Shown here in pieces: positions 20,817 through 41,921 of a DNA stretch of 64,000 bases. Source of the stretch: Bacteroidota bacterium (GTDB lineage: Bacteria > Bacteroidota > Bacteroidia > Bacteroidales > WCHB1-69); NCBI GenBank assembly GCA_009787115.1, contig WRGQ01000170.1:21640-85639 (forward strand), read 5' to 3'. Under the pieces are notes generated by a model. It worked only from the letters and a program-made list of their open reading frames with translations. It was not told the origin of the DNA and did no database searches. A program made the position numbers and the translations under genes. How positions within the stretch are numbered: the stretch's first letter is position 1; the number at the start of each line of letters is the position of its first letter.

Positions 20817-22045
20817 GCTTCAAACAGATTTTCAAAATGTTTAATATCGGCAGTTAATTCTACATAAGCATACCCGTTTTCAGTAGTAACCTGCAAAACA
20901 TCAAGATATGGGATTCCAATCTGCCGGAAGGTCATATCAAGGTATGGAAACTCTTCATCAATATTTTCATACGAGTGTTGGTAAAGTCCGCCGTCTGATA
21001 TAGAAAGATATACCATCTCCTGAGAAGCATCAATAAAGTTTGGAATTTTAGATTCGGGCATCATCGCTACAAACTTTTTATTGTCGGTACGTGAAGAGAG
21101 GAAATCCACAAATTTATCGTTTCGCAGGTTAATATCCACCTGTTCAACTTTTAACGTTTCCTTAATTATTTGTATTGCATCTCCAATTTTAGTATCTGCA
21201 CTTAGTGTTGGAATTTCAACGATGTTACCCCAAAATTCGTGCGAAATACAATCATTGTTATAATAACTGAATTCAAAAGTTCCGGCTTGGGAGTTTTTGC
21301 CTTGATAATTGAACATTATCCCGATGAGCGTATCAAAGATGCCTGCTTCTACTTCTTCCGAATGAATAATTTTCATCACTTCCTGTGCCTGTATGGCGCC
21401 AATAATAGAAGCGCTCACAGGGGTAGTGGCAACACGTCCGCGTTCGGCATTTCCCTGAGCAATTTGAGGACAGGAGGTTCTGTTTTCGTGACTGTTTCCG
21501 GTGTCGTCTGCAACCTCCTCTTCCGCAACACGGCATTCGTAACAGTTTTTACCCAATTGATAGGCGGTAACTTGTCCTTCCAAATCTCCGATTCCTCCTT
21601 CAATCCAGATTTTTCCGGCGCGAAAGCACATACGATTTAGCAATGTACGCGCTTTCAGACTGTCCAAACAGCCCACTACCACATCCATACGGCGATACAC
21701 GCCCAATCCGACGGCAGTAGAGAGGTCGCCGCAAATAGCCTTTACATTTATAGTTGGATTAATCTCTAACAGACGTTTGGCAGCAATTTCGGCTTTGTAG
21801 AATCCTTTATCCGCATCTTCCGGGCGGAACAGGATAGAACGTGTAAGGTTGCTAAATTCAATCTGGTCGAAGTCCACCACTACAATATTGCCTACTCCGA
21901 AGAGGGCTAAATTTTTCAATACTTCATTGCCCAAAGCGCCGGCGCCAACCACCAGCACTTTTGCATTTTTTACTTTGTCGATTTTAAACCACGAGAGCAA
22001 AGGAAAAACATCTTCACCCCATTTTTTATTCTTATTTGTTTGCAT
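20813..22045 (-). CDS. ubiquitin-activating-enzyme-like (E1, ThiF/MoeB superfamily) adenylating enzyme
   Basis: Rossmann Gly loop 'VLVVGAGALGNEVLKNLALFGVGNIVVVDFDQIEFSNLTRS'. 'CYEC' zinc dyad. A crossover-loop Cys ('RTSCPQIA') is followed by 'ATTPVSASIIGAIQAQEVMKII'. An extra C-terminal region of about 180 aa is a possible UFD-like domain. Confidence 0.85.
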   Translation of the reverse strand: MQTNKNKKWGEDVFPLLSWFKIDKVKNAKVLVVGAGALGNEVLKNLALFGVGNIVVVDFDQIEFSNLTRSILFRPEDADKGFYKAEIAAKRLLEINPTINVKAICGDLSTAVGLGVYRRMDVVVGCLDSLKARTLLNRMCFRAGKIWIEGGIGDLEGQVTAYQLGKNCYECRVAEEEVADDTGNSHENRTSCPQIAQGNAERGRVATTPVSASIIGAIQAQEVMKIIHSEEVEAGIFDTLIGIMFNYQGKNSQAGTFEFSYYNNDCISHEFWGNIVEIPTLSADTKIGDAIQIIKETLKVEQVDINLRNDKFVDFLSSRTDNKKFVAMMPESKIPNFIDASQEMVYLSISDGGLYQHSYENIDEEFPYLDMTFRQIGIPYLDVLQVTTENGYAYVELTADIKHFENLFEA

Positions 22046-22060: not shown

Positions 22061-24472
22061 TTACTTTTCAATATATTGGAATTTCGTATTACCGATAGTA
22101 AATTTCATACCGTGCTTCAAAGGAATGAGGTCGTCTTTATGGGCTTCTCTACCATCGCATACCACTCCGTTTTCAAGCGCTTTCATCATAGGCACTCTTC
22201 TTTTGGGGTCTATGTAGAGTTTTACTTGTTTGTCGTGAATATTTTCGTTGCTGTCCCAATTCATTTGAATAACACAGTGGTTGGATTTACCAATAGTTAC
22301 TTCGTTACTACCGCCCGAATCGTTCATCCATTTATGAATAGCAATTTCTCCATCTCTTTTTTCGCCTTTATATTTTAAGAAATATTTTTGAGCGAGGTGG
22401 TGTCGGGCGATAATAGAGATACCTAATCCGGCGCTGCATAGCATAAAACTGAACATCACGCCGAAATCAGAAAAATAAGAAGTAGTATAGAGAATAACAA
22501 AACTGATTACTCCTGAAATAAGCCCGCCTATTAAAGCATCCTGCCATTTGATAGTGCTTTTAAAGGCTAAACAAAGCGCCACACTACCTCCGAACAGGAT
22601 CCACGGAATGGCATCTAACCACCATACATTACCGGCTTTTCCCAACAAAATACAAATCATAGAACCCAATAAGAAAGTTGTAAATCCTACGAGAGCTCCA
22701 AACAAAGCACGACTGAAAAATGAAAAGAGCACTTTTCCTCTTTTTTGTCGGAAGTCGTTGATATAACTGAACAGAAAAGTTAAAACAAACCCCAGCAAAA
22801 TACCTGCAAATAAAAGTCCTGTTATTTTTACACGAAAAGTATCGTAAACATTGTGTGGAATTGCAGTAGCGCCTTCAATCACCTCTTTAAATTTTGCAGG
22901 ATAGAAGGCATTTACCAAAGTTTTGATGAACCCGGCGAATATTTCCCATTTAGAACTTATTTTGAAAATAATCCAAATAAAGAATCCGCTAATCATACCC
23001 GACATTGCCCATTTCAAGTAGTAAGGACTTTTTTTCAAATCAAACGGATGTCTTTTATCGAAATGATATTGAATCCCATCTTTACAATTTTGTCCATATT
23101 CCACGCATTTGTAACCGTTTTCTTTCCAGCAGTCCCAATGGATTTTATGGGGACATTTCACTACTATCAACTCTCCTCTTTCTAAAGGTTCTTGACAATA
23201 GGAACAGGTTTCATACACTTCCCCTTCGCTGGTATTAATAGGTTCATAAGGTTTAACATATTTCTTTTCAAAGTTATTGGTACGGGAAATAATGAAAGGA
23301 ATGATTACCTGCATTATAAAAAATGCAATAAAAAGAATGATAACTCCAAATATAACAGCTATGTAAGTACTCTCGGATGTTTTGCCGGGACCTTTGGGGT
23401 TTTCTTTACTGGCAATAGCATAATCAATTTTACCGACTGCCTTTCCATTTTCTTCGTCAATGCCTACTTGTAAGGTAAATGTTTTTCCATTATAGGTTCT
23501 GTTTTTGTTATGATTCACAAGTATCAATTCATAATCAGCGGAGAGATTATTTACAAAACCACGAAGAGAATCAACAATACCGTTTACATTAGTGGCAGGA
23601 TAGAAACCTCCTCTCAAGTCTGCATACTGACGTTGCAAACAGATATTGTCCAGCACTTTATCTACAAGACTGCTGCCGTTGCCATATCTGAAGGCATGGA
23701 TTTGTACCTGATTTTTAATGGTATTATCTATATTTTTAATATACTCATCCGATTTATCCAGATTATCAATTTCCGTAAACGAATTAAGGTTAATATTTCC
23801 ATCGGTAAAAACAAGTAAATACTTGGATATCGGCTCGGTACTTTTCTTTTGCATAGATGTATCTTTGGCAAATTTTTCAAAATTATCCATAATACTCTGA
23901 TACAAATCTCGCGGTTCCAGTTTTACTCTAAACTCTTTTTCAAATTCGTAGAAATTATATTTGGTAATCAGTTGTTTTTCGCCGGTTCGTCTGTCAAAGA
24001 AAGAGATGTAGGCGCAACTGTCCGGCAAATTTTCTACTGTTTTTTGTATGGCAGCCTTCATACTTTTCATATCTTCGTCGGAAATAGTTCTTCCTCTGTC
24101 CACCATAAACCAAAAAGCAACATTCTGAGAGATGAGTTCGGCTCCGGTGGCTCCCGATTTTTGGGAGATTCTTTCAACAATGATATCCTTTTTAGGCCAT
24201 GCGTAATCACCTTCAATAATGGTAAATTTGTTATTTTCCAGATTAGACCAGATTACTTTTTTGTTAGAATTATTATCGGTAATTCTAAAGCGCAGGAATA
24301 GGGTGTCTGCTTTTTCCGACCACGCACGTTTTGCAAAGTGCATATTAACAGTGTATTCTGCATCTTTCCATTTCTCCTGACGGATTAAATCATTTTTGGT
24401 GTCCACTTTTTGGTTTTGGCATGCCATAAGAAGGAACAACGGCATCAATAGGAACAGGTATCTTTTTTTCAT
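22061..24472 (-). CDS. polytopic membrane protein: lipoprotein signal + vWA-like domain + RING-H2-like zinc finger + 6 TM + C-terminal FHA domain (E3 candidate)
   Basis: Lipobox 'LLMAC'. vWA blocks 'FWFMVDRGRTISDEDMKSMKAAI', 'YLLVFTDGNIN', 'VQIHAFRYGNGS'. TM at aa 370-396. Finger 'CSYCQEPLERGELIVVKCPHKIHWDCWKENGYKCVEYGQNC' (nt 23084-23206). About six further TM helices. FHA 'VTIGKSNHCVIQMNWDSNENIHDKQVKLY...LKHGMKFTIGNTKFQY' (nt 22064-22360). Confidence 0.75.
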   Translation of the reverse strand: MKKRYLFLLMPLFLLMACQNQKVDTKNDLIRQEKWKDAEYTVNMHFAKRAWSEKADTLFLRFRITDNNSNKKVIWSNLENNKFTIIEGDYAWPKKDIIVERISQKSGATGAELISQNVAFWFMVDRGRTISDEDMKSMKAAIQKTVENLPDSCAYISFFDRRTGEKQLITKYNFYEFEKEFRVKLEPRDLYQSIMDNFEKFAKDTSMQKKSTEPISKYLLVFTDGNINLNSFTEIDNLDKSDEYIKNIDNTIKNQVQIHAFRYGNGSSLVDKVLDNICLQRQYADLRGGFYPATNVNGIVDSLRGFVNNLSADYELILVNHNKNRTYNGKTFTLQVGIDEENGKAVGKIDYAIASKENPKGPGKTSESTYIAVIFGVIILFIAFFIMQVIIPFIISRTNNFEKKYVKPYEPINTSEGEVYETCSYCQEPLERGELIVVKCPHKIHWDCWKENGYKCVEYGQNCKDGIQYHFDKRHPFDLKKSPYYLKWAMSGMISGFFIWIIFKISSKWEIFAGFIKTLVNAFYPAKFKEVIEGATAIPHNVYDTFRVKITGLLFAGILLGFVLTFLFSYINDFRQKRGKVLFSFFSRALFGALVGFTTFLLGSMICILLGKAGNVWWLDAIPWILFGGSVALCLAFKSTIKWQDALIGGLISGVISFVILYTTSYFSDFGVMFSFMLCSAGLGISIIARHHLAQKYFLKYKGEKRDGEIAIHKWMNDSGGSNEVTIGKSNHCVIQMNWDSNENIHDKQVKLYIDPKRRVPMMKALENGVVCDGREAHKDDLIPLKHGMKFTIGNTKFQYIEK

Positions 24473-25715: not shown

Positions 25716-28217
25716 CTACCTTTTCCTTCTTGTCCACTCTTTCAAGGTCATAGCGAAGATGAATGTTATTTTATCTAAAGTAGCCGGATAGTTACCCTGT
25801 TCATCTTTAATGAGAATATAGAGATTTCGATTTTCAAAAGAATAAAAGATTGAGAAACTGAAACCGGAAATCACTTGCCGATACTCGTTTACTGTTTCGG
25901 GTACGGAAAATTGTGGCACGGTTAAGAAACCGCCTATCGGGTTGTTCTCTTTTGCAGTAACCTCTTTACAGTCATCAATAGTGATTTCGTTTCCTTGGCA
26001 GGCGCCATAAAAGTAGCCTTGCAAACCGAAGATACCCGGCATAATGATAGTATCCATATCAATAATAGCGGAGCCACTGAAATTGACCTTGCCGATATTA
26101 TTTGTCTTATTCAAAATATCGAGGGAAAAATAACTCACGTTAGTAGCGGCAGGCGCTTTTTCCTGTTGAGGACCGGGCAAACTTTTAGCCCACTGATACA
26201 GGGTTTCCAATGCCAGAGTTTGTTTCAGGTCTTTGTCATTATTCATACTTCCGTTTTGTTTCGGAGTAAAGAAAGCCATTTCAAAATCGGGAGAGTTACT
26301 GTCAATGACTATTGCCAGCAGGCGAGCCTGATGCTGACTGTGCGCCAGTTGTGACTGCACGTTCAAGTCCTGGCTTGACAAGAATAACCCTAATCCCGGG
26401 TGCGAGTGCATCCAGGCGGTATGTACGTATTCATTTCCTGTTTTTTGGCACAAATTTTCGAGTGCATAAGTAAGAGTAATACCAATTTTGGCGCCAAAAT
26501 TCAGATTATATTCGCCGTACACCGCATCATCGCCGGGCTCTACAAGTTCTTCAATACTGATGTCATACATCTGGTTTCCGCTATTGGGAACATAATCCCA
26601 ACGTCCTACTAAGAAACAACCGGTTTCGTTGGTTTTGTCGTCATATTTCAAAAATCCCGAAAAGAATTTATAAATATCCAGAATTGCTTTTCTACTGAAA
26701 TATACGCTTCTAATGCCTGTATCATTGAGCATAGAAAGCATATTCACTTCAAAATAGTCTGTACCTGCTTTTTCCCGTATGTTTCCCAAACCTGTTTTGT
26801 AGGATTTAATTTCAATAAAATCGTCATCATCTTCTATCAGCAGTCCGCCCATATCGGATTGTCTTTTTTGTTTTTCTTTTTTTTCAAGCCTTTTGTTTTT
26901 CAGGATGGTTATCACATAAAAAAGGATTCCGAAAATAAACAATAACAATAATACGCCGGTAACCGACAGCATCAAATATGGAATTTGAATTTCTGCGAGC
27001 CTTTCATAACAATACTGAATATCTTTATATTCAACAGGAATTTCATTAGCCAAATCTGCTATGGCTGCTCTGTCATTTTCGTCAGGGTATTGTTTTTGTT
27101 TTTGTGCAATAAAATTTTTACTGCTTGTATTAATTTGATCGTACCGTTTTTTAATTTTATCCAATTGGGATTTGATAGCCTCTTTTCCAATCCATCCTGT
27201 AGTAGAGTGTTGAAGACGTTCTTCAATTTCTGCTTTAATACCCCCTAAAATTTCAAAATCATCTTCCATTACGGATTCGGCAGGTAAAACAGTACCTCTG
27301 TATTCTTTTTTCCAATTTAATACCACACTATCATCTACTCTCTTCAGGGCATTAACGATTCTTCTTTTCACATTGTCAATATTTGTTAACATCTTTTCGG
27401 AAGATAAAATCAAAATATCGCAATCTTCACATTTAACGTGGGTATCCCTTTTTCTATCCCATAAATCTTTTAAATATTCTTCAATATTTAGTGTTTGGTC
27501 GTTCAATTTATTTCTCAGGTCTTTTAGATTTTCTCTATCCCTGTCGCTTAGAGTTCCTTTTTGAAGCAAACTGTTACATTGATTAATCAATGCGGCGATT
27601 CTGTCTGTAAAAGGATTGATGACTATTTTTTTAACTTCTTTAGGAGTTTCCTGTTTTTTTGGTTCGCTTTGTTTGGGTGATTTTGGAGATTCCGGTTTTA
27701 CGGTGTTACTTGTCGTAGGATTAGTGGGTTCGCTTGGAGTGGGTTGGGAATTTTCAGTTCCCTGAAATTTCACGGGCGCTATAATCATTTTGCTGATTTT
27801 TTGCCCTTCTACAACATAACAGGTAAGGTAATCCTGTGTTTTCTTTATTTGCGTAATCTCTTTGGTTCGGGTATTTTTAGAGATATGGGTAGCATTTCCG
27901 GGTACCGCGTCAAACTCTAATCCACATTTCCTTATTTCTTTACCGATATTGGAATTGTCGGCAATGGTTAAGTTGGCATAGCCAATTTGATTGTCTTTTA
28001 TTTTTACCAATGCGGGATCGTCGGTATGAAACAGAATAATTTCCTTACCGGTATTATTTTCGACCGTTATTGAATGTTTAGCTTTATCATAAGTTGCTGT
28101 TACTTCCTGTCCTGAAGTGTTGGGAAGGCTTATGGCACAAAAAACAACCATCCACAAAAATGCCCAAATCTTTACAAAGAGCGTTTGTCTATTTATCATT
28201 TTAATTCGTTTATTCAT
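25716..28217 (-). CDS. membrane-anchored JAB/MPN (JAMM) metalloisopeptidase with large periplasmic N-terminal region
   Basis: Signal peptide, a P/S/T/K-rich linker, coiled-coil segments, and a TM 'YLMLSVTGVLLLLFIFGILFYVITIL' followed by KNKRLEKKEKQKRQ. The JAMM motif is exact: E531 ('NETGCFLVGRW') plus 'HSHPGLGLFLSSQD' (HxHx7Sx2D; the H604 codon is at 26406-26408). Its ATG overlaps the upstream stop (ATGA). Confidence 0.85.
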   Translation of the reverse strand: MNKRIKMINRQTLFVKIWAFLWMVVFCAISLPNTSGQEVTATYDKAKHSITVENNTGKEIILFHTDDPALVKIKDNQIGYANLTIADNSNIGKEIRKCGLEFDAVPGNATHISKNTRTKEITQIKKTQDYLTCYVVEGQKISKMIIAPVKFQGTENSQPTPSEPTNPTTSNTVKPESPKSPKQSEPKKQETPKEVKKIVINPFTDRIAALINQCNSLLQKGTLSDRDRENLKDLRNKLNDQTLNIEEYLKDLWDRKRDTHVKCEDCDILILSSEKMLTNIDNVKRRIVNALKRVDDSVVLNWKKEYRGTVLPAESVMEDDFEILGGIKAEIEERLQHSTTGWIGKEAIKSQLDKIKKRYDQINTSSKNFIAQKQKQYPDENDRAAIADLANEIPVEYKDIQYCYERLAEIQIPYLMLSVTGVLLLLFIFGILFYVITILKNKRLEKKEKQKRQSDMGGLLIEDDDDFIEIKSYKTGLGNIREKAGTDYFEVNMLSMLNDTGIRSVYFSRKAILDIYKFFSGFLKYDDKTNETGCFLVGRWDYVPNSGNQMYDISIEELVEPGDDAVYGEYNLNFGAKIGITLTYALENLCQKTGNEYVHTAWMHSHPGLGLFLSSQDLNVQSQLAHSQHQARLLAIVIDSNSPDFEMAFFTPKQNGSMNNDKDLKQTLALETLYQWAKSLPGPQQEKAPAATNVSYFSLDILNKTNNIGKVNFSGSAIIDMDTIIMPGIFGLQGYFYGACQGNEITIDDCKEVTAKENNPIGGFLTVPQFSVPETVNEYRQVISGFSFSIFYSFENRNLYILIKDEQGNYPATLDKITFIFAMTLKEWTRRKR

Positions 28218-28918
28218 AATTGTGATGCATTTAATGTAACAATATTGCTGTCGTCGGATAAAAGTCTTTGTTTTTCGGCTTCTTCCTTTTGCAGTTTGGC
28301 TTGTAGTTCCTGCATTTTCTTGGCTTTTTTCACCATAGTGCTGGCTTTAATTTGATTAAATATAGGAATACCCACCATAACCACCACTAAAATAATACCC
28401 AGATACACAAATTTGTTTTGCGAAGAGCCTGAACCTTTTGTCTCTTTCAGTTGATTAAGTTTAGTTAATTCCCGTTCGCATGCAAAATCAAATTGATTGC
28501 GCAGTTCATCCAATTCATCATTGGCTTGCCACAACCCGTTGGTCTCTTTCCGATTCAAAAAATCTTTTTTTAAGTTATTGACCTGAAGAATAAAATTCTC
28601 AATCTCTTCTTTCTTAATTTTACCTGATTCTTTTTGTTGAATAGCCTCAGCAATTTGTTGGATCTCTCCGTTTTTTCCAGACAGATAGTTTTTCCATTTG
28701 TCGTTAACTAACTGCAAGGAATCCTGCTTTGTTGCCGGCGCTTCTCCTTGTGATGTACTTTTAGGGATATCGTGATCTACCACCATGGTCACTCCGTTGG
28801 GTTGTTCATTGTTGGTATTTTTGTTTTCTTTTTCAAGCAGATCGTCAATATTTTGAGCCCACGTGACAAAAATGGCTACTTTAAATATTACGATAAGCAA
28901 TAAACATTTTATTTTCAT
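28214..28918 (-). CDS. bitopic envelope protein (signal peptide, coiled coil, C-proximal TM)
   Basis: Signal 'MKIKCLLLIVIFKVAIFVTWAQ', TM 'FVYLGIILVVVMVGIPIF', and a K/E-rich tail. It may be a T6SS-iii membrane-complex subunit, but I cannot assign it by eye. Confidence 0.5.
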   Translation of the reverse strand: MKIKCLLLIVIFKVAIFVTWAQNIDDLLEKENKNTNNEQPNGVTMVVDHDIPKSTSQGEAPATKQDSLQLVNDKWKNYLSGKNGEIQQIAEAIQQKESGKIKKEEIENFILQVNNLKKDFLNRKETNGLWQANDELDELRNQFDFACERELTKLNQLKETKGSGSSQNKFVYLGIILVVVMVGIPIFNQIKASTMVKKAKKMQELQAKLQKEEAEKQRLLSDDSNIVTLNASQL

Positions 28919-28924
28919 AAGCTA

Positions 28925-30052
28925 CTATTTTAATCGGTTTTCAATTCTGGTACATAAATCGGTGAATGTGCCATATTCTTTTTTACAGGTTTTGTAATCG
29001 GCGTTAATCGTGCTTTTTATTCTGTCATATTTTTGTTTTAGGGACGCTGTGCTTTGTTTACTGTTTTTAATATCCAATAACAGTTCTGTCAGTTTTTCAT
29101 TAATTTGGTATAATACGCGACAATCTACGGCAGCGGCGTGTCCTCCCCCTCCTTTTTGTTTTTTATCACTCAGGATTGTATTATAAATAAGAATGGTATT
29201 GTTTCTGTCTTCAAGGGCGCCGTTATATCTTGCAATACTTGCTTTCAAATTATCGCATTCGTTATATTGCTGGTCTTTGGTGCCTGTAAATTTTTCTTCG
29301 GTGCCCACCGTTTTACTTTGTAGTTCTTTAATTTTAGCGGAGGGCAAGTCATATAGTTGATCCAATGCTGCTGCTGCCGCATCTTTTTGGGATAACAATT
29401 TTTCTGTTTCCTTATCCAGGTAGCTGATTACCATCTTCAGTTCGGGGCTTTCGCAAACCTCTAACGTGAGGATGTTAAGGGTAAATTTTACTAAATATTC
29501 CACTTTTTTATCTCTTGGCGATTTTGCGGTTTTGGCATTTTTTGAAGCCACATATAGCGTTACGGGGATTTTACAGTCTTCGGCATTCATTTTAAAATAA
29601 TAGATTAACCGAGATTCAGGATCTCTTAATTCTAATGTTCTGGTTACATCAGGAGTGCCGTCTAAAATAACATTCACCAGTCCGCTTTCATTAATACACG
29701 GCACCACCTTTTTGTCTTTCATATATTTCTTTACCATATCCTTATCAAACCAAACATCATCTTTTTCTTTCATAGCTTTGCTGTAGGGCTGTTTTTTCGG
29801 AAAAGCATAAACAAATAATCCGTCATCGCTATCTCCATAGAAGATCATTTTCAATTGTCCGATATTGTTATCCCAATTGAATGTAACGAGGAGATTGGCT
29901 TCGGGTCCCATGCCAAAAGCGGGTTGCAAGGGAATAGTGGTTTTACAATCTCTCATAGGAACTACATTCACATAAATGTCTGTGCTGCCTTGAGAAAAAC
30001 ATTTTAAACTTGCAATAAAAAAAATAAAAATAAATAATCTTTTTTTCGTCAT
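28925..30052 (-). CDS. hypothetical periplasmic protein
   Basis: Signal peptide 'MTKKRLFIFIFFIASLKCFSQ'. 375 aa, with no TM helix and no recognisable motif. Junctions to both neighbours are 5-6 nt. Confidence 0.5.
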   Translation of the reverse strand: MTKKRLFIFIFFIASLKCFSQGSTDIYVNVVPMRDCKTTIPLQPAFGMGPEANLLVTFNWDNNIGQLKMIFYGDSDDGLFVYAFPKKQPYSKAMKEKDDVWFDKDMVKKYMKDKKVVPCINESGLVNVILDGTPDVTRTLELRDPESRLIYYFKMNAEDCKIPVTLYVASKNAKTAKSPRDKKVEYLVKFTLNILTLEVCESPELKMVISYLDKETEKLLSQKDAAAAALDQLYDLPSAKIKELQSKTVGTEEKFTGTKDQQYNECDNLKASIARYNGALEDRNNTILIYNTILSDKKQKGGGGHAAAVDCRVLYQINEKLTELLLDIKNSKQSTASLKQKYDRIKSTINADYKTCKKEYGTFTDLCTRIENRLK

Positions 30053-30057: not shown

Positions 30058-30624
30058 TTATGGTTTGAGTGTTAATTCAATTTCAATAGGTTTGCATCTT
30101 GCTAAGAAAATATATGGAAAATTGGAGTCGGGTTGGGTAACGTAGAATTGTAAGGAAAAAGTTATCGGGGCATTGGAAGGGAGATTACTGATGTCGAAAA
30201 AAACAGGTTTTGCATTTTTCTTCACCACTTCGTAACCATCTTCAAAAGAACGGAAGTAGGTCATTTTCCCTCTCGACAGAAATTTATACAATACCCTGTT
30301 TTGATTTTTGAATGTTTTTGAGGCATTCACGTTACGGTTTTTTCTCATCAGTTCGGCAAGGTCTGTATCTTTGGCAAAGAACCAAACGCTGCGTTCGTAG
30401 TTTAACGTAAAGTCGTTACCCACCATAATGATGAGTATTTTTTTATCGGTAATACTGAACGTAAGGGGTAAGTTCATCAAATAATTATCCGTTGCTTTGA
30501 AATAGTCGCACAACCGCACCTCAGTTTTTTGAGGTTTTGTTGGGGAAATTTCGATTTTGAGTTGTGCGGATACCCACAAACAACACCAAAAAAGGAGTGC
30601 AAAAAGGATAATTTTTTTCATCAT
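30058..30624 (-). CDS. hypothetical periplasmic protein
   Basis: Signal peptide 'MMKKIILFALLFWCCLWVSAQ'. 188 aa. It starts 3 nt after the E2 stop. Confidence 0.5.
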   Translation of the reverse strand: MMKKIILFALLFWCCLWVSAQLKIEISPTKPQKTEVRLCDYFKATDNYLMNLPLTFSITDKKILIIMVGNDFTLNYERSVWFFAKDTDLAELMRKNRNVNASKTFKNQNRVLYKFLSRGKMTYFRSFEDGYEVVKKNAKPVFFDISNLPSNAPITFSLQFYVTQPDSNFPYIFLARCKPIEIELTLKP

Positions 30625-30627: not shown

Positions 30628-31182
30628 TTAATCCTGTTTAAATTCGACCCATCCTTGTGGTTCGCCTTGTTTCAGCACCCATTCGGCAACGTCGAGGTCT
30701 TCGGGGTAGGGGTATTCGTTTTTGGCGTGGTAGTCGTCGTAAGTAAGGTAATCAATTACGCGGTCAATATAGTCCACTAAGTGGGTATGCACGCCGCTAT
30801 CTCCGGTATTGAGGCACACGCGCCCCTTAAAGTCTCCGAAGAATCGCACGTTGGGGTGCCACACATCGGTAGTGAACGAGAACTGCGGCTGTCCGTCTGC
30901 GCTGGGGTAGTTGTTGGGCAGGGTGATACGCATTACATGTTCATAACCGAAAATAGGAAGTTTCAGTCCCTGTTCATTTTCCGGCTTAACACCGGTAATA
31001 CTTTTTACATTAAAAACGATGTCATACACAATAGGCAATCCCAATCCGTTTCTTTTGCGGATGATGTAGGAGCCCTGCGTATCGTTTTCATATCTGCGGT
31101 CTATCAGTTCCCATTCTTTAAACAAACGGGCATCTTTGCCGTTATAGGTCTTTCCTTTGTAGGTTTCTATTTCTCTTTCCAT
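30628..31182 (-). CDS. ubiquitin-conjugating-enzyme-like (E2, UBC fold) protein
   Basis: 'ITLPNNYPSADGQPQFSFTTDVWHPNVRFFGDFKGRVCLN' reproduces the UBC core (YP...P...F.t.i.HPNi...G.iCl). It has the HPN triad and catalytic Cys123 (codon 30814-30816). 184 aa. Confidence 0.85.
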   Translation of the reverse strand: MEREIETYKGKTYNGKDARLFKEWELIDRRYENDTQGSYIIRKRNGLGLPIVYDIVFNVKSITGVKPENEQGLKLPIFGYEHVMRITLPNNYPSADGQPQFSFTTDVWHPNVRFFGDFKGRVCLNTGDSGVHTHLVDYIDRVIDYLTYDDYHAKNEYPYPEDLDVAEWVLKQGEPQGWVEFKQD

Positions 31183-31511
31183 TATCCCGCAATTACTCTT
31201 TTAATAATAATTAATTTATCGCCTTCTTTAACGCCGTAGTCGAAGAGGCTTTGTTCTTCCCCGTTGTTTTTTTCTTTGAGGATTTCGCTTTTGCCGTCTT
31301 CCGACATACGTCCGAGGTAGTATTTAATGCGGTTTCCGCCGTTATCCATTTCCGGCAGCACCCATAGTTTATCGGGCATATTTCTTGCTTCCTCTCTCAC
31401 TTTTTCGAGGGTAAATTTAATGTTTTCTTTAGGATTGAGAATCCTGATGACGCAACTCTTATTTTCATAAGAGAAGATCACTTTCATACCTTGTTTTTCT
31501 TGATTTTCCAT
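31182..31511 (-). CDS. ubiquitin-like beta-grasp protein ending in a free C-terminal Gly
   Basis: The C-terminus 'SLFDYGVKEGDKLIIIKRVIAG*' aligns with ubiquitin '[22 protein letters not shown]'. 109 aa. Its TAA stop shares one nt with the E2 ATG (TAATG). Confidence 0.8.
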   Translation of the reverse strand: MENQEKQGMKVIFSYENKSCVIRILNPKENIKFTLEKVREEARNMPDKLWVLPEMDNGGNRIKYYLGRMSEDGKSEILKEKNNGEEQSLFDYGVKEGDKLIIIKRVIAG

Positions 31512-32718: not shown

Positions 32719-35700
32719 TTAATCTGCTTTATTGAACTCTTCCAGACTGCTTGCAATTTTAGTTTTTAGTAACTGAACAGTGTATTTATTCTTGGCATCT
32801 CTAACCATAGTAATCTTATGCCGAAGAAACAAATATTGCGACATATTATTTTTTGAATAAGGTAACGTTTTACTTCCGTCACATTGGAAGGTAATACAGG
32901 TAGTAATATATACACGACGCGGAGCGCCGGACAGACCATTTACCCAAATTGCCTGACTCCTAAAAAAAACATTATCTTCTAATGATTCATATTGCTGTTT
33001 AGTATAATAGTCATTATTATTTTCTGTATAAGATACTTTAGTTTCTTCGTTGCTAACATAAGTAATAAGGTTATCTACTTTTATGCTGTAGGCATAATAA
33101 CGTAAATCAATACGATAGCGAAGATAAAACACGCTACTCATGTCGGGCGATGGCCGATTATTTTTTTCAAACTTCACATCAAAGTCTGCACTGTAACTCT
33201 CAAGTGTAATATGTGGAATATGTGATAGACACATTGAATACTCTTCTAACATAAATTTATAATTACCCAATTTTTCTTTCTTCAGTTTTTCCGTAACTGA
33301 TATAGGGTTCTTAGATGTGTCTATCTTGTTAAAGTTTATGTTACACTCGTTGTTGCTACAGAATATTGAGTTTTTGATAAAACTTTCCATTGCCGTATCG
33401 GTAAGCCATTCGGCTATTATAGTGAAGACAATAGCTGCAAGTGATACTATAATTCCCAGCACTCCAAAAGCAGCGCCTTGTGCAAATACAAGGATAGCAG
33501 AAGTAGCGTACGCTACCACTGACAAACCATAAAATGCCGCTGCCGCATTATTATTTTTCATGAGCCTACCGTATGCCTTAATCCAGGAATCATATATGTC
33601 AACACCCGTTCCAATAACCGAAAATACCTTAAAAGCAACATCAAATTTTTTTAGAAGAAGAGTATTTTTCTTAATATTTTTTTTTGCAAATCCTTCTAAG
33701 AACGTGGTTCCCAGTGCACCTACGTTTGCCCCGAATTTTATTTTCTCTTTTATATCTTTTTCCTGTATAGAAGAAAATAAAGAATATATATATATTCCCG
33801 ACATAACACTCTGAAAACCTTTGTGGTTTGAGATATATTCTATGAACCTGTTGCTTTTAATACTGGCGGCGCTCCTGCTGAAAAAAGAGTCTTCTTTGTT
33901 TACTATTTTCTTAATGGGTTCTACTATAGAATTCTTTGCTAACTTAATCTGTTCTTGTATTTTTGATTTTATGCCAGTACCTTTGTTTCCGACTTGCTTT
34001 TCCAGTGCATCTGTTACTTCCTTGTCTCTTTTGCACGCACTCTCGTTTCCCACTTTTGAATTATTCTCCAATATTTCGTTGTCAAAAATATCATTCCGAA
34101 AAGTAACATACGTTGAGTGTAAAAAATCAAAAAGTGTATCAATGTTGGCAGAACTCTTTGTTCCTTCCGAATAATCAGAGAATAATGCTATCATATCAAG
34201 CTCTTTATACAGCAGTTTTCCCACTTGATTTCTCTTTTTAGATATGTTTTTCAAGTATTCTTCGCCAGGGTCTTTGTACGCTTTTTGAATCAGTGTTCCA
34301 AAGCAATAGATATCTTTCTTTTCGCCGTCTATATGTTGGTCTTTGGTGTGAGGCAATATGGATAAAGTACAGCACAAATCCATTACTAATTTTTTTACTT
34401 CTAAGAGCATTTTATTAAAAGCCTCCTCTTGATTAGAATCAGTAGGAGGTTTTAATTGCGCAAAAAAGCCACAATACTTTTCGAAAGAATCACTTTTTAA
34501 ATTTATTACCAGGTTTTCTCTGTATTTGTCTATGTGTTTTCTTATGGACTTTCTCCGCTCAACTGCTAAAATCTGTTCAAGAAACTCTTTTTTTGTTACT
34601 TTTCTTGCCTTATCTAAATCGTCTCTATATCTTTCTCTTATCTGTTCATCTTTTATATCTTCAACATCATTATCATTAACATAGAGGCGATAATACATCA
34701 TCATACCCAGATTATGTATGGCAGCATAATGTTCCAAATCGGAAGAATTGCCCAAGAGGGTTGAATCTGAAATTATAATTTCATTTTTTTCGAGAATTTT
34801 AGTCTCAAACATCTTCTTTTTTATCGTTGAGAAACTTACTCCTGTTCTTATAGAACGAATAAAGGCTTCATGATCAAGATGTTTATCTTGCAGATACCAT
34901 TCCATTTGTTTGGCTACGCCAACAGGGTCGTCCACAACAAAGAACAGATCTTTTTTTCCTTCCGGCTTGTCATAGTTGTATTTTGCTTCTTTTACAAGGT
35001 TGTTTAAACGAGATTCGCTATATTTGCCAATTCCTGATATCTGATGGTAAACAGCCATATCCTTTACACTAATTGCCCGAGATTCAGAATCAAATGATTG
35101 TAAATCAAGTTTGTGCATAAAATCATCTCTTTTTTCCTTAAGAACACCTATCGCCTCTGGGGTGAGTTGCACTTCGCTATAAAACAAGGCTATCTTATCT
35201 GTTTCGGATACGATGAGATAGCCACTACCTGCTTTAACTTTTCTACCGGAAGTTTTATTTGTTTCTTTAAACGTAATATTTTCTTCATCATATTTCAATT
35301 CATATATATCTCTGGCTGTTTCGCTATATACATAAAGCCAACCAAATCTCAAAGGCATCGGATAGAGGTGGTCGGGGGCGGTTACCGTAGAATTATCGTT
35401 AACTTTCTCCTCGTCCTTTTTTAATGTATATTTACTGTTGTTTTTGTTCGGATCTGTTATAAAACAATGGATTCCATATCTGAAAGGATATACTCTAATT
35501 CCACTCTCAATGGTGAGTAGATTTTTCTTCTCAATAAAATCTTCTACAAAAGGATCGCTTTGTTTAATTTCAATATGCAACTCTTTATCAATCATTTTGG
35601 TGGTAATCTCAAATTCTTCTCTAGAATAAGATTTATTATCCTCCACTGTTAGAGTAGTGTTACCCACTTTTTCATTTTCTTTATCCAAAATGGTAATATC

Positions 35701-35952
35701 AAGATTTTTGCCAATAGCTTCTTTAGGATATAATATGCCCAGTTCTATCTTGACCTTGCTTCCCTGTCTTGCACTTTCAATGGGAATGTATTTTTGATCT
35801 TTGGTAACAATTACCCACCTTGAAATTTCAATTTTAGGGGTCGGTTTCTTTGGATCTCCTGCTTTCTTCGCATCATTCTTAGAACTTTCTTTTCTTTGAT
35901 CTTTATTGGAAGTTTCCCCAGTAGTTTTTTTTTCTCCTTGTTTATTTCTCAT
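32719..35952 (-). CDS. large T6SS effector candidate: shared N-terminal domain plus C-terminal hydrophobic helices
   Basis: 1077 aa. Residues about 35-150 are homologous to the N-terminus of the neighbouring M23 effector. Hydrophobic stretch 'FYGLSVVAYATSAILVFAQGAAFGVLGIIVSLAAIVFTIIAEWL' at about nt 33410-33555. It lies downstream of vgrG and the PAAR-like gene. Confidence 0.55.
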   Translation of the reverse strand: MRNKQGEKKTTGETSNKDQRKESSKNDAKKAGDPKKPTPKIEISRWVIVTKDQKYIPIESARQGSKVKIELGILYPKEAIGKNLDITILDKENEKVGNTTLTVEDNKSYSREEFEITTKMIDKELHIEIKQSDPFVEDFIEKKNLLTIESGIRVYPFRYGIHCFITDPNKNNSKYTLKKDEEKVNDNSTVTAPDHLYPMPLRFGWLYVYSETARDIYELKYDEENITFKETNKTSGRKVKAGSGYLIVSETDKIALFYSEVQLTPEAIGVLKEKRDDFMHKLDLQSFDSESRAISVKDMAVYHQISGIGKYSESRLNNLVKEAKYNYDKPEGKKDLFFVVDDPVGVAKQMEWYLQDKHLDHEAFIRSIRTGVSFSTIKKKMFETKILEKNEIIISDSTLLGNSSDLEHYAAIHNLGMMMYYRLYVNDNDVEDIKDEQIRERYRDDLDKARKVTKKEFLEQILAVERRKSIRKHIDKYRENLVINLKSDSFEKYCGFFAQLKPPTDSNQEEAFNKMLLEVKKLVMDLCCTLSILPHTKDQHIDGEKKDIYCFGTLIQKAYKDPGEEYLKNISKKRNQVGKLLYKELDMIALFSDYSEGTKSSANIDTLFDFLHSTYVTFRNDIFDNEILENNSKVGNESACKRDKEVTDALEKQVGNKGTGIKSKIQEQIKLAKNSIVEPIKKIVNKEDSFFSRSAASIKSNRFIEYISNHKGFQSVMSGIYIYSLFSSIQEKDIKEKIKFGANVGALGTTFLEGFAKKNIKKNTLLLKKFDVAFKVFSVIGTGVDIYDSWIKAYGRLMKNNNAAAAFYGLSVVAYATSAILVFAQGAAFGVLGIIVSLAAIVFTIIAEWLTDTAMESFIKNSIFCSNNECNINFNKIDTSKNPISVTEKLKKEKLGNYKFMLEEYSMCLSHIPHITLESYSADFDVKFEKNNRPSPDMSSVFYLRYRIDLRYYAYSIKVDNLITYVSNEETKVSYTENNNDYYTKQQYESLEDNVFFRSQAIWVNGLSGAPRRVYITTCITFQCDGSKTLPYSKNNMSQYLFLRHKITMVRDAKNKYTVQLLKTKIASSLEEFNKAD

Positions 35953-36077
35953 AATCTTTATTTTTTGCTTATTATTATTTGTTTGTTATTAATTAGGCAC
36001 AAGTTACGATTACATCTCCACTTGCAACACAATGGGGGAACTCTATTTTTGAGTTTATTTCATTATGGTGGTGCTTG

Positions 36078-38738
36078 TTACCGATGTTGTGCCGGTGGTG
36101 GCGTTGCTGATGGTGTAGGTGTTGCTGCGGCTGCTTTTTTTGAATTATCATTCAGTCGTTTCATATTATCTTCTACTTCCTTCTTTTGTTTTTCTAATAT
36201 ATCAGGTCTCTCTTTTTCAACCCGATCATTAAGCACAAGGTCATCAGTTGCTTCGTTCATATCATAGTCTGATGAATCATACTTTATTATTTCACTGTCC
36301 TGTTTGAATTTAAGAATTGCTTTCCGGGTATCACTTGTATTATTTCCCCAATCTCCGTCTATTAACTTACCTATATTATATCCTAAAAATTTTAGTTGAG
36401 CCTGGATTCTTCTTTTTCTTCTTCCTTCGTCATTCATGTGTGGACATATCAATTCATGAACCGCCCAACATGCAGTTACGTAAGTACTATTATTAAAGTT
36501 ACATCTACCCTTGGGACCGTCAGCGGTAGGATTATTACTATCCTGACTATTAATTGCACAATAACATGGGAACATTAGTGGAAAGTCATTAAGTGGTATT
36601 AGATTCAAATTCTCTTCGGGTAAACCGTTTAGATTTTCTCTAAGCCCAACTCTAAAGGGGGCTTGTTCATTTCCTGCTTGTATATTTAGATGCACATGAC
36701 CGGGCCATTTTGAAGGATCATCAAGATTTCCGGTACGTCCGGCATGTGCTATAATTTGTCCTGCCATAACATATTGTCCGTTTTTTGCCACAAAATCATT
36801 TAAATGTAAATAACTGATTGTGTGACGTTCATATAGACTTTTACTTGCAACGAATGTCTTAAATGTTAGCACACTAAACCTTCCTGCTTTATTTTGGTCC
36901 CCCTTATTCCAATTCGTATTACCGACTGTTCCTCCATGTATTGCATAGACATTGGCTCCTTTTGTAGCATGGATATCAATACCTGCATGTCCGGTTGTTC
37001 TCCACAAATGTGCGTTGCCTGGCGCATTTCGCTTCTCTTTAATTGTTTTCGGGGCCTTAGAATTCGTGGAATAGTCCGGATTCGGCACATCCACATAGAT
37101 ATATTTCCTGTTTTCTGTTTTTCCGTAACCTTTTCCTCCATAATCGTCACCGGTGACCTTGTTGTTTCCTCCAAGATCAAAATATGTTGTAGGAATATGC
37201 ATATTCAAATTTTTATACCTGTCATCCTGTATATGGGTTTGAGTACCATTATCCTCTATCTCATCCCACACCGGTTGGCACCATTTCATAGCAAAGAGTG
37301 TAAAGTGAAATCCATGTACCTCGCAAAATGGAGAAAAGAGTTTAGTGTCGAATTTTTCAAATTTTCCGGTATCTTCTTTAATGACAAACTTTTCAGAAAC
37401 TTTAAGTTCACTCTTTTCATCTCCATGTTGAATCTCCCATCCGAAAGGCTTTCCCCAATCGGTTTCTTGCTTAGCCCCTTTTGGCCAAACAATTTTAAAT
37501 GGTGTATCCTGATAGGTAATGTGCATTTTATTGTCTTTCATATGGTTGTGTCTAATCACAGCAGTAGTATTTCCTGTAATTCTTTCCAATACCACAGGGA
37601 AATCAAAAAATCCTATTTCAATATCTGCTTTTTCATTATCTAAAAAGGGTTTCGGAATAAACAGGGTGAGCCACCCCTCCTCATCAGTAGTCACATGTGA
37701 GTTATAGTGCAACACCATTTTCCTCAGCAACGGCAAATATTTTTTCTCGTCTTCATTCTCCTTTATTTCAATGTTGCTACCCTCTGGCGCTCTCTCCTTC
37801 CAATATTCCTTAAAAAGTTTTTTAAATTCCGAGTCATATTTATATTCTTTGTCTTTTTCTTTTTTCTTTTTATAGGAAACAGCGGGAAGTTGATCCATTT
37901 TGATTTCTTTGTTTCTTACACCTTCTTTACAAAATGAGCCAAGAACAGCCATTGAAGATTGAATCAGTTCATTTCTGTTACGATAATTGTATCGTCTCCC
38001 ACCATTATTAAATTTATATTTTGCATCGCTATCTATCTTTTCTGCTGCCTTTCTCTTCTTTTGTTCTTCCTTTGTCTCCTCTCTCTCCTTTGGTTTCTTC
38101 GGTATCTGTACACTTAAAATATAGTTTTCGGCATTTCTGTCAAATTCTTCGGTTATTTTTTTATTTCCTGCGGTAAAGACTATTTTTTTAACCATTGCAT
38201 ATTTAAGGGGTTGCCGTGAGCGGGCATCAATAACCTTTATATATATTTTGGCAAATTCAAACATCATCACCTGAAGTCTGGCATCTCCGATAAACTCTTT
38301 TTTAAAAGGTTCTTTTTGTTCTACTTTAACATATAGATCTTTAAAAAGCCATTCGGGTTTTATTTCAATTTCCTCAGAATAGGAAGTTTTGGCATTACTG
38401 TCTACTGTCAGTTTTGTTTTAGTTACTTCTTTTTCCTTTTCGCCATCTATAATTATAATATCAATGACATTTCCTGCTACTACGTCACTATTTTTTATAG
38501 ATAACTCTATTTTAACCTTAGTTTCTATTTTAGCTTCAGAAATCTCTTTGTATGTATCATTATTATTTTTGTCTTTGGTAAGGATTACCCACTTTGAGGT
38601 AAGGATTTCGGGTTTTTTAGATTCTTTTTCCTTCTCGGTTTGTTCTTGTTGACTATCTTTTTTAGAAGATTCGGCTCTCACTTGAGAATTACTGATAGTT
38701 CCTTTAGTCCCTGGCGTTGTGGATTGTTTGTCTGCCAT
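36078..38738 (-). CDS. T6SS effector candidate: N-terminal shared domain + M23 peptidase + peptidoglycan-binding domain
   Basis: M23 HxxxD 'HAGIDIH' (about nt 36975-36992) and HxH 'GHVHLNIQ' (about 36684-36706). PG_binding_1-like 'RIQAQLKFLGYNIGKLIDGDWGNNTSDTRKAILKFKQ'. No signal peptide. It follows the PAAR-like gene. Confidence 0.8.
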   Translation of the reverse strand: MADKQSTTPGTKGTISNSQVRAESSKKDSQQEQTEKEKESKKPEILTSKWVILTKDKNNNDTYKEISEAKIETKVKIELSIKNSDVVAGNVIDIIIIDGEKEKEVTKTKLTVDSNAKTSYSEEIEIKPEWLFKDLYVKVEQKEPFKKEFIGDARLQVMMFEFAKIYIKVIDARSRQPLKYAMVKKIVFTAGNKKITEEFDRNAENYILSVQIPKKPKEREETKEEQKKRKAAEKIDSDAKYKFNNGGRRYNYRNRNELIQSSMAVLGSFCKEGVRNKEIKMDQLPAVSYKKKKEKDKEYKYDSEFKKLFKEYWKERAPEGSNIEIKENEDEKKYLPLLRKMVLHYNSHVTTDEEGWLTLFIPKPFLDNEKADIEIGFFDFPVVLERITGNTTAVIRHNHMKDNKMHITYQDTPFKIVWPKGAKQETDWGKPFGWEIQHGDEKSELKVSEKFVIKEDTGKFEKFDTKLFSPFCEVHGFHFTLFAMKWCQPVWDEIEDNGTQTHIQDDRYKNLNMHIPTTYFDLGGNNKVTGDDYGGKGYGKTENRKYIYVDVPNPDYSTNSKAPKTIKEKRNAPGNAHLWRTTGHAGIDIHATKGANVYAIHGGTVGNTNWNKGDQNKAGRFSVLTFKTFVASKSLYERHTISYLHLNDFVAKNGQYVMAGQIIAHAGRTGNLDDPSKWPGHVHLNIQAGNEQAPFRVGLRENLNGLPEENLNLIPLNDFPLMFPCYCAINSQDSNNPTADGPKGRCNFNNSTYVTACWAVHELICPHMNDEGRRKRRIQAQLKFLGYNIGKLIDGDWGNNTSDTRKAILKFKQDSEIIKYDSSDYDMNEATDDLVLNDRVEKERPDILEKQKKEVEDNMKRLNDNSKKAAAATPTPSATPPPAQHR

Positions 38739-38796: not shown

Positions 38797-39183
38797 TTAT
38801 GTTTTTACCGTAACATTACCTGCAAATGTAACTTCAATCACACCGCCCCATATACACATACATTTACAGTTGTCAACCAAAGCGGGCATATTTTTCACCA
38901 ACACGGTAGGTTTTCCGGGTATCCAGGGTGCTACTGTATTGGGGATGCAGGGCATTGGGGTTAATACGCCGCTGGCAGAGGCGGTGGCTGAGGCTACTGT
39001 TGGATTTGCCAAAGACTGGCACATTCCGAAGGTAGCAATATTCACCATAGGTTTAAAATCCATAATATTTGCCATAGGTACCCCCGCGCAATTGATCATT
39101 TTATCGGGCAATACCGTGAAAGATCCGGGTGCTATCCCGAAAGTGCATTTCAATAAAGCGCCGTTAACTACAAAAAATCCCAT
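38797..39183 (-). CDS. DUF4280 / PAAR-like spike-tip protein
   Basis: 128 aa. 'VVNGALLKCTFGIAPGSFTVLP', 'NIATFGMCQSLANP', 'PCIPNTVAPWIPGKPTVLVKNMPALVDNCKCMCIWGGVIEV' follow the DUF4280 pattern. It lies directly downstream of vgrG. Confidence 0.7.
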   Translation of the reverse strand: MGFFVVNGALLKCTFGIAPGSFTVLPDKMINCAGVPMANIMDFKPMVNIATFGMCQSLANPTVASATASASGVLTPMPCIPNTVAPWIPGKPTVLVKNMPALVDNCKCMCIWGGVIEVTFAGNVTVKT

Positions 39184-39244
39184 AATTAATTTTTTTTTCT
39201 TTTTTCTATCAATTTTTGATTAGAACCGATAAAATTCGTTTTTA

Positions 39245-41248: not shown

Positions 41249-41297
41249 AATATTAAAATAAGGCGGTTACCGTTTATGCTTTTCTATTTTAGTTTCT

Positions 41298-41801: not shown

Positions 41802-41842
41802 ATTTTTGATTTTAAAGGGTTAATTTTTTTAATTAAAATGGG

Positions 41843-41900: not shown

Positions 41901-41921
41901 TCCGGCTTTAGTTAATGTAGA

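Follow-up and report, generated by a model that had tools for sequence, protein, structure and literature searches.

Whether a bacterial secretion machine can carry a ubiquitin-type modification pathway of its own is the question raised by the 64,000-nucleotide (nt) stretch of Bacteroidota DNA analyzed here (the window), in which a gene for a 109-amino-acid (aa) ubiquitin-like protein (Ubl) ending in glycine lies directly upstream of a gene for a ubiquitin-conjugating enzyme (E2), inside a gene cluster for a type VI secretion system (T6SS). An earlier note on this DNA had taken the pair for a modifier that is ready for activation as translated and an enzyme of eukaryotic type. The same cluster encodes a ThiF-type activating enzyme (E1), a membrane protein with RING and FHA-like domains that is the predicted ligase (E3), and a JAB peptidase, a candidate deubiquitinase (DUB). 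Judged by their best matches and conserved motifs, E1, E2, RING and JAB are each closest to eukaryotic counterparts with catalytic residues kept, and the reading that we favor, and regard as probable, is a cascade that conjugates Ubl by way of thioesters and forms part of one subtype of T6SS. It is from folds, catalytic residues and motifs, domain architecture, topology by hydropathy and synteny that we infer both the relay and its role in the T6SS.

Reading of the open reading frames (ORFs) in the window confirmed that Ubl ends in SLFDYGVKEGDKLIIIKRVIAG (...KRVIAG) with TAA directly after it, and that, as the note had also stated, this stop shares a nucleotide with the E2 start. The junction on the coding strand is ...GCG GGA TAA TGG AAA..., in which the ATG of E2 begins with the final A of TAA, so that the genes overlap by 1 nt at 31182 (TAATG). 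The overlap is not conserved in related loci, where the two genes are mostly about 3 to 50 nt apart with a few apparent short overlaps (approximate spacings, as E2 starts were assigned heuristically) and where only gene order and adjacency are kept; translational coupling of E2 to Ubl is putative, as the overlap behind it is not itself conserved. There are 49 close homologues of Ubl with 62–100% identity, including one 100%-identical protein annotated in a Bacteroidetes metagenome-assembled genome (MAG), and a profile search led to 88 representatives at 50% identity clustering, while E2 has more than 192 homologues. Because of these homologues and their invariant residues both are considered real genes and not chance ORFs. 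A frameshifted or accidental ORF was ruled out for Ubl by its conservation. Residues A108 and G109 of Ubl are invariant among 30 close homologues, about half of the close homologues have 2–8 additional residues past G109, and G109 is likewise invariant in 74 diverse homologues. Among 79 genomic loci from different species in which Ubl lies directly upstream of E2, Gly and a stop end the protein in 72, with tails of IAG, VAG, FPG or IPG, and 2–4 residues follow the Gly in the other 7, so that the family neither carries extensions consistently nor lacks the Gly.

The AlphaFold2 (AF2) model of Ubl, from a 30-sequence alignment, has a predicted local distance difference test score (pLDDT) of 85.5 and a bb-a-bb-b topology, in the order b(9-15) b(18-24) a(31-44) b(61-69) b(75-78) b(99-107), and the final two residues fall outside the last strand. 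A Foldseek search of the PDB with this model gave 44 matches at E<=1e-3, the top-ranked of which were all Ubl domains or ubiquitin; the matches include the UBL domains of USP11/USP15 and TBCE, the Ubl of EccD, Caldiarchaeum ubiquitin, ubiquitin itself, SUMO and a bacterial Ubl-DUB complex. The predicted structure of Ubl is thus a beta-grasp of ubiquitin type whose tail is free, which is what the note had proposed to look for. The alignment of its tail with that of ubiquitin, also claimed in the note, was recovered in the same register by hhalign, which set Ubl residues 88-106 on ubiquitin 55-73, so that G109 corresponds to G76, but the score was not significant (E 0.028, probability 1.8%) and is therefore not taken as evidence of homology. 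Ubl had no match in Pfam or NCBIfam at E<=0.1, and its predicted membership among conjugatable modifiers rests on fold and context, not on a family-model match. The best reading of these models is that Ubl would be a conjugatable ubiquitin-like modifier that is made mature, with a free C-terminal Gly.

The wider Ubl family also holds tandem or poly-Ubl proteins, and in a few of its members the Gly is lacking. One protein of 298 aa (P0128) is an apparent E2-Ubl fusion, with the Ubl at residues 190-297 and an end in ...RVIS without Gly; P0172, P0191, P0193 and others contain 2-7 tandem Ubl-like stretches, are up to 672 aa long and resemble polyubiquitin precursors; and P0178, P0205 and P0239 have, beyond ...IAG, a conserved 'YACPIP..W' C-terminal extension of ~20-25 residues, perhaps a separate type of propeptide or a motif acquired by fusion. 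Two Ubl genes occur within one T6SS cluster in L020, and two E2 paralogues per T6SS cluster in L029 (adjacent), on the L008 contig (P0098/P0099) and on a contig of 127,641 bp (P0087, P0126). Such paired E2 or Ubl genes in some clusters hint at more than one conjugation branch.

E2 contains WHPNVRFFGDFKGRVCLN, in which H109, P110 and N111 are followed by C123, a Cys 12 residues past the Asn. Both the HPN triad and this Cys, to which the note had drawn attention, are invariant in 28 sequences with 49-83% identity, as are W108, G116, G120 and L124. Searches of the PDB with E2 found eukaryotic UBCs only, at 4.8e-4 with the single sequence and 3.8e-7 with a profile. Its AF2 model (pLDDT 87.4; predicted template modeling score, pTM, 0.83) shows the full UBC fold, from the N-terminal helix through the four-strand meander and the active-site loop to the two C-terminal helices, and each of the top 50 Foldseek matches to the model is a eukaryotic E2 over ~160 aligned columns, with UbcH7, UbcH5, Cdc34, Ubc13 and UBE2K among the structural neighbors. 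The claim of a canonical eukaryotic UBC arrangement stands as far as the fold and these neighbors are concerned, but the loop from HPN to Cys exceeds that of the eukaryotic UBCs in the HMMER alignment by 3-4 residues. No Prok-E2 family matched E2 in the Pfam scan, and many E2 homologues have a precomputed match to PF00179.

The remaining catalytic parts are similarly conserved. E1 matches Pfam ThiF (PF00899) at 1.3e-52, and its best PDB match is the active adenylation domain of Uba1 (5.9e-26), followed by UBA7, SAE2 and UBA6, ahead of MoeB/ThiF; the NCBIfam ThiF/MoeB models match at 1e-37 to 1e-29, all far below their cut-offs. The nucleotide-binding motif GAGALGNE is conserved, and 68 sequences share C126, C168, C171, C192 and C266 without exception. 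C192 is located between the CxxC and ATTP motifs, where the crossover-loop catalytic Cys is expected, and may, on an assignment by position only, be the catalytic residue. In the 803-aa membrane protein the RING ligands are C423, C426, C440, H442, H445, C448, C456 and C463 (C3H2C3 order), and these eight together with W449 are at least 95% conserved in 74 sequences. A profile of this protein matched an integrin I-domain (5.8e-4) and the RING-H2 E3s ARK2C/RNF165 and Arkadia (0.002) in the PDB, and a family scan of 20 members found RING in 11 (zf-RING_2, E<=0.01), FHA in five (6.5e-7) and VWA in five, the window protein itself scoring 13.1 bits against Prok-RING_1, for which the cut-off is 29.1. 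Hydropathy puts the vWA-like domain in the periplasm and the RING and FHA-like domains in the cytoplasm.

How far the T6SS linkage of this module is conserved was addressed by scanning E2 relatives in one genome per GTDB species, which gave 161 stretches, the best 80 loci of which were examined. T6SS structural genes lie within 10 kb in 73 of the 80, and the other seven are contigs cut off at 13 kb or less; all of the informative loci among these best 80 of 161 (73/73) are thus T6SS-linked, and none occurs in another context. Co-occurrence by BLAST or hidden Markov model (HMM) was counted over 85 related loci, in which BLAST found Ubl in 79, the RING/FHA protein in 76, E1 in 70, a 259-aa protein (putative TssG) in 63, the PAAR-like protein in 57, TssK in 53, and TssE and a 543-aa protein (putative TssF) in about 40 each, the baseplate genes co-occurring with the Ubl module in 40-64 loci. 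The carriers are mostly named Bacteroidales (Alistipes, Prevotella, Parabacteroides, Muribaculaceae, Paludibacteraceae, Tannerellaceae and 'Candidatus Limimorpha', with a few bins otherwise named) and mostly MAGs from the rumen and other animal guts; isolates among them are Mediterranea massiliensis, Millionella massiliensis, Bacteroides mediterraneensis and Caecibacteroides pullorum. Two gene orders were found. That of the window, class A, is PAAR-effectors-Ubl-E2-(188)-375-234-(JAB)-RING/FHA-E1-259-TssK-TssE-543, with the module between effector and baseplate genes, whereas class B, seen in Alistipes, Prevotella, Mediterranea and others, is PAAR-x-E1-259-TssK-TssE-543-Ubl-E2-375-~281-RING/FHA, with the baseplate genes between E1 and Ubl and with housekeeping genes starting after RING/FHA. 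Both orders keep Ubl-E2-375-RING/FHA together and E1-259-TssK together, and in the window the end of E1 and the beginning of the 259-aa gene have 4 nt (GTGA) in common. The class B order and this overlap argue for one functional unit and not a chance insertion. As far as gene order can tell, the module is a conserved, integral part of what appears to be a distinct T6SS architecture in Bacteroidales.

The JAB peptidase is the less constant member. Its metal site HSHPGLGLFLSSQD (HxHx7Sx2D) and an upstream Glu are conserved in 36 sequences, its best PDB matches are Rpn11 (1.1e-6), CSN5 and the Caldiarchaeum Rpn11-like protein, the PADLOC JAB model matches at 5e-5, and the JAB domain is cytoplasmic by hydropathy. 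BLAST and an iterated domain HMM detected it in 38 of the 85 related loci, and neither in class B clusters contained in one locus (e.g. L044, L065) nor in L013, which has the class A order. Because every Ubl in the JAB-negative loci ends at Gly (43/43), JAB appears to be dispensable for Ubl maturation, in agreement with the note, which had seen no propeptide to remove; these are 43 of the 79 loci with Ubl. Extended Ubls occur in 7/36 JAB-positive and 0/43 JAB-negative loci (Fisher p=0.003, uncorrected for phylogeny). The suggestion that JAB is rather a deconjugase fits its dispensability for maturation here, but in relatives the enzyme probably both trims extensions and deconjugates.

Taken together, the favored cascade would run as follows. 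The 410-aa E1 would adenylate Ubl and take it over as a thioester, probably on Cys192; Ubl would then be handed to Cys123 of the UBC-fold E2, and the cytoplasmic RING-H2 domain of the 803-aa inner-membrane protein would direct it onto target lysines. The membrane-anchored Rpn11-like JAB would strip the tag again and, in relatives with an extended Ubl, probably trim the extension too. Reversible Ubl conjugation at the cytoplasmic face of the T6SS membrane complex could thereby control assembly, baseplate docking or turnover of the apparatus, for which the FHA and vWA domains may provide the input signal.

Several observations weigh against such a cascade or its place in the T6SS. E2 of the window matches Pfam UQ_con (PF00179) over residues 83-125 only, at 1.7e-5 and 24.9 bits against a cut-off of 27, and JAB matches Pfam JAB at 0.0095, below the gathering threshold. 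The RING domain of the 803-aa protein matches zf-RING_2 at 0.006, with 17.3 bits against a cut-off of 27.3, and its last ligand pair has an atypical C-x6-C rather than C-x2-C spacing. JAB is missing in about half of the loci, and reversibility would therefore not be universal. The cluster proteins had no match to a known membrane-complex family in Pfam or NCBIfam, the two libraries scanned for it. Synteny, moreover, indicates linkage and not function, and the module could serve some other process that is co-regulated with the T6SS. Lastly, the literature searched contained no paper linking a T6SS to E1, E2 or Ubl, but Burroughs 2011 lay outside it and a prior description is possible.

An alternative explanation, which we consider improbable, could be a stand-alone mobile anti-phage or 'selfish' Ubl system, of the kind of Bil or of the Iyer and Burroughs E1/E2/JAB operons, that came into the T6SS locus by chance insertion and tags phage or other foreign proteins. 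Bil and CBASS Cap2/Cap3, and by genomic context Bub, are linked to phage defence (PMC11601596), E1/E2/JAB operons have been viewed as mobile elements in earlier comparative genomics (PMC3417536), and both E1, with the E1-E2 (Cap2) models, and JAB have weak PADLOC matches. This would not account for the T6SS linkage of every informative locus or for the position of the genes among baseplate genes in two different orders. Neither Ubl, E2 nor the RING protein matched an anti-phage model of PADLOC 2.0 (from 2023), which speaks against a defence system already catalogued; E1 consists of one ThiF domain and is not of the Bil type; and both the E3 and JAB are embedded in the membrane and have periplasmic domains.

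It is quite improbable, too, that Ubl serves non-covalently, as a part of the structure or of its assembly, in the manner of YukD/EccD of type VII secretion or of the ubiquitin-like TssN domain of T6SSiii, with E1, E2 and RING degenerate or otherwise employed, although the T6SS of Bacteroidota provides a precedent for it. The canonical T6SSiii has a TssNQOPR membrane complex in which TssN combines five transmembrane (TM) helices with a cytoplasmic ubiquitin-like domain that is the docking hub for TssK (PMC10781749), tssN lies between tssK and tssG, and TssR is a vWA-containing lipoprotein (Bongiovanni et al. 2024, PMC10781749). The cluster in the window resembles it in its Bacteroidota-type TssC and Hcp families and in ClpV, VgrG, TssK and TssE, and the canonical system too has a ubiquitin-like domain (TssN) at the membrane/baseplate interface and a vWA lipoprotein (TssR). 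It differs in having no TM protein between the putative tssG and tssK, the canonical site of tssN (the 259-aa protein adjoining TssK has no TM helix by hydropathy), and in having instead a free, predicted conjugatable Ubl with E1, E2 and a vWA-RING-TM-FHA protein. EccD Ubl domains are among the Foldseek matches, as noted, and YukD is not conjugated (PMC1779556). Against a purely structural Ubl stand the invariance or near-invariance of its terminal Gly, of C192 and the ATP motif of E1, of HPN and C123 of E2, of the RING ligands and of the JAMM motif, which is unlike that of inactive relics, and the finding of Ubl C-terminal extensions only where JAB is present.

We are more doubtful that Ubl, E2 or both are T6SS cargo, that is, eukaryote-mimicking effectors that subvert the ubiquitination of protists or of the host. 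Consistent with such a role, the closest matches of E2, E1, RING and JAB are eukaryotic proteins, the genes lie directly downstream of the effector region, and the closest relatives come from MAGs and the other carriers from rumen or animal-gut samples. However, the cluster has its own E1, and the membrane in which the E3 and JAB are anchored is that of the bacterium itself. Conservation differs as well: the block from Ubl to E1 is conserved and the adjoining effector genes are not, the M23 effector candidate being matched in three related loci (L001, L002 and L008; 30-38% identity) and the VasX_N protein and the 345-aa ORF in none. This scarcity of matches across related loci suggests that the effectors form a variable cargo region. 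In class B, Ubl and E2 follow the putative TssF, away from the VgrG/PAAR/effector region, and the lack of significant sequence similarity between Ubl and ubiquitin makes its use by a host E1 unlikely. A sulfur-carrier system of the ThiS/MoaD type for cofactor or thio-modification chemistry, brought to mind by the sub-cut-off matches of E1 to ThiF/MoeB models and by a small beta-grasp protein ending in Gly, is very hard to credit, given an E1 closer to Uba1/UBA7/SAE2 than to MoeB/ThiF, a tail of AG or PG and not the typical ThiS/MoaD GG, and the presence of E2, by which the note had drawn the distinction, and of RING E3 and JAB in a cluster where the Pfam scan found no rhodanese domain and no thiamine or molybdopterin genes.

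The closest parts list for the favored conjugation cascade is found outside secretion systems. Nunoura 2011 reportedly described a eukaryote-like E1/E2/RING-E3/Rpn11 ubiquitin operon in 'Candidatus Caldiarchaeum subterraneum', and Burroughs, Iyer and Aravind 2011 are said to have catalogued sporadic prokaryotic Ub/E1/E2/RING/JAB operons; together these are the closest assemblies. They have the same five parts as the window: Ubl is a beta-grasp protein, E1 has one ThiF-type domain, E2 combines the UBC fold with HPN and Cys, the E3 is of the RING type and JAB is Rpn11-like, and each part resembles its eukaryotic counterpart most. By contrast, both the E3 and the DUB here are large proteins integral to the membrane that carry periplasmic domains (vWA) and an FHA domain, Ubl is translated in its mature form (AG and stop) and not as a precursor, JAB is optional, and the genes lie among T6SS structural genes in more than 70 species-level loci. 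Control of a T6SS by a reversible modification has a parallel in the Pseudomonas H1-T6SS, which is regulated by threonine phosphorylation through Fha1/TagH with PpkA/PppA. Both have an FHA protein at the envelope complex of the T6SS and, within the gene cluster, the genes for a reversible post-translational switch, but here the modifier would be a ubiquitin-like protein and not phosphate; the Pfam scan of the cluster detected neither kinase nor phosphatase. Descriptions of the GA1-GA3 T6SSs (Coyne 2016) mention neither ubiquitin nor ThiF genes (PMC4714493), and the Aravind-group papers searched do not describe a T6SS-linked Ubl system (PMC3417536, PMC1779556).

Two bacterial systems were compared as candidates for membership. 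Bil (BilABCD) carries out ISG15-like anti-phage ubiquitination, with a JAB able both to mature and to deconjugate its Ubl (PMC11601596), and shares with the window its bacterial Ubl, E1 and JAB, the catalytic Cys of E2 and an expected lysine-directed thioester chemistry; membership was ruled out, as E1 here is a single ThiF domain of 410 aa and not IAD-AAD-CYS and a RING E3 is present, and the context is a T6SS cluster and not a defence island. Bub, which forms oxyesters on Tyr and Ser without catalytic cysteines, has an E2 without the C-terminal UBC helices and needs the serine protease BubE (PMC11601596), is similar, as Bub/6E (DUF6527), in its Ubl, E1, E2 and peptidase and in the conserved C-terminal Gly of Ubl. 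Membership was ruled out here too, by the invariance of C192 in E1 and C123 in E2 and by the presence of both C-terminal helices in E2, and the Pfam scan found no DUF6527 match in the cluster.

Already known, then, are bacterial Ubl conjugation in phage defence (Bil, CBASS), a Bub system linked to defence by context, and one reconstituted archaeal operon. What the present cluster would add is a full set of E1, UBC-type E2, RING-H2 E3 and Rpn11-type enzymes that is hard-wired into a contractile secretion system and not into a defence island, and a Ubl module that is common in animal-gut Bacteroidales and, with several carriers being cultivable type strains, genetically testable. If the favored cascade is real, it would mean that the regulation or assembly of the T6SS has a further level, would point to a membrane complex of a new kind, and would offer a tractable bacterial model of membrane-embedded RING E3/DUB pairs that is relevant to the origin of eukaryotic ubiquitin. 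A more specific possibility, which we put forward tentatively and think rather unlikely as it stands, is that Ubl conjugation is an obligatory, switchable step in building the T6SS: the RING/FHA protein, as E3 and core of the membrane complex, would tag itself or a subunit of the baseplate or membrane complex, the covalent hub so formed would replace the fused Ubl domain of TssN, and JAB would reset or dismantle it. This would make it the first bacterial secretion machine under ubiquitin-type modification, with enzymes closest to the eukaryotic ones.

The genes discussed are collected in Table 1. By Pfam and NCBIfam the whole cluster is a Bacteroidota T6SS, encoded as one long minus-strand run from 46797 to 16426, in the order ClpV, TssB, TssC, two Hcp, VgrG, DUF4280 PAAR-like protein, two effector candidates and the 345-aa ORF; then Ubl, E2, the 188-, 375- and 234-aa envelope proteins, JAB, two non-conserved ORFs, RING/FHA and E1; and finally the 259-aa protein, TssK, TssE, the 543-aa protein and an M23 peptidase. 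Only position and size underlie the assignments of TssF and TssG. An extracellular contractile injection system was also considered in place of a T6SS and was ruled out by the presence of ClpV and TssK.

Table 1. Positions and descriptions of the Ubl module and of the surrounding T6SS genes in the window.
Feature	Position	Strand	Description	Basis
Ubl	31182..31511	minus	109-aa predicted ubiquitin-like beta-grasp modifier, tail ...VIAG then stop	ORF, AF2, Foldseek, invariant Gly
E2	30628..31182	minus	184-aa UBC-fold conjugating enzyme, HPN 109-111, predicted catalytic Cys123	Pfam, PDB profile, AF2, Foldseek
E1	20813..22045	minus	410-aa single-domain ThiF-type adenylating enzyme, CxxC (168/171), Cys192	Pfam, PDB profile
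Predicted E3	22061..24472	minus	803 aa: lipoprotein signal, vWA-like, TM 373-391, RING-H2, ~6 TM, FHA-like	
JAB	25716..28217	minus	833 aa: TM 13-31, periplasmic region, TM 421-439, cytoplasmic Rpn11-like and conserved C-terminal domain	
188-aa protein	30058..30624	minus	N-terminal signal/anchor (hydrophobic residues 1-19), accessory envelope component	hydropathy
375-aa protein	28925..30052	minus	signal-peptide-like N-terminus, conserved core partner of module	iterated HMM
234-aa protein	28214..28918	minus	bitopic membrane protein, N-terminal anchor and TM 170-188	hydropathy
T6SS tail block	38797..46797	minus	ClpV, TssB, TssC, two Hcp, VgrG, DUF4280 PAAR-like	Pfam, NCBIfam
Effector candidates	32719..38738	minus	886-aa M23 peptidase, 1077-aa VasX_N pore-former-like protein	Pfam
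Baseplate block	17083..20816	minus	259-aa (putative TssG), TssK, TssE (gp25-like), 543-aa (putative TssF)	Pfam, NCBIfam
M23 peptidase	16426-17073	minus	215 aa, signal peptide, last T6SS operon gene; BLAST match in 2 related loci only	

Of the envelope proteins, the 375-aa protein is the most constant, being found by iterated HMM in 78 of the 85 related loci and always downstream of E2, with weak coiled-coil or 2TM-like matches only. Homologues of the 188-aa protein, which had no family match in Pfam or NCBIfam, occur in 28 of the 85, and those of the 234-aa protein in 26 loci. The only conserved envelope proteins of these clusters are the 375-aa, the ~234-281-aa and the RING/FHA proteins.

In the tail block Pfam matched AAA_2/ClpB_D2, TssC (4e-99), TssD (1e-31 and 5e-21), Phage_GPD/base_V and DUF4280 (5.5e-33). 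Below their cut-offs, NCBIfam models likened the DUF4280 PAAR-like protein (38797-39183) to Francisella IglG and the C-terminus of VgrG (39245-41248) to Francisella TssI, an unexpected apparent likeness of the spike of this Bacteroidales T6SS to that of the Francisella T6SSii. The effector candidates match Peptidase_M23 (5e-12; 36078-38738) and VasX_N (1.9e-13; 32719-35952) and share, after a Lys/Ser-rich leader, an N-terminal domain of ~140 aa with 41% identity (E 1e-17); it had no family match and may be a common T6SS loading or adaptor domain. The 215-aa M23 peptidase at the other end of the run may be a peptidoglycan-remodelling factor for insertion of the apparatus rather than an effector.

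The 345-, 207- and 176-aa ORFs of the window had no homologues in related loci by iterated HMM, and are therefore treated as variable cargo, immunity genes or spurious ORFs. The latter two, of which the 207-aa ORF has a GTG start, overlap by 73 nt on the minus strand between the JAB and RING genes (24503-25584), and might represent one gene broken by a frameshift, an insertion particular to this strain or a gene of the immunity type. Different genes fill this place in other loci, such as one for an OMP_b-brl_2 protein in L001. Outside the T6SS cluster, also on the minus strand (13017-13823), lies a gene for a lipoprotein with a Fib_succ_major domain, ACPPPPPPPPPVPPP, in which 9 consecutive prolines come right after the lipobox Cys and are followed by V and three more prolines.

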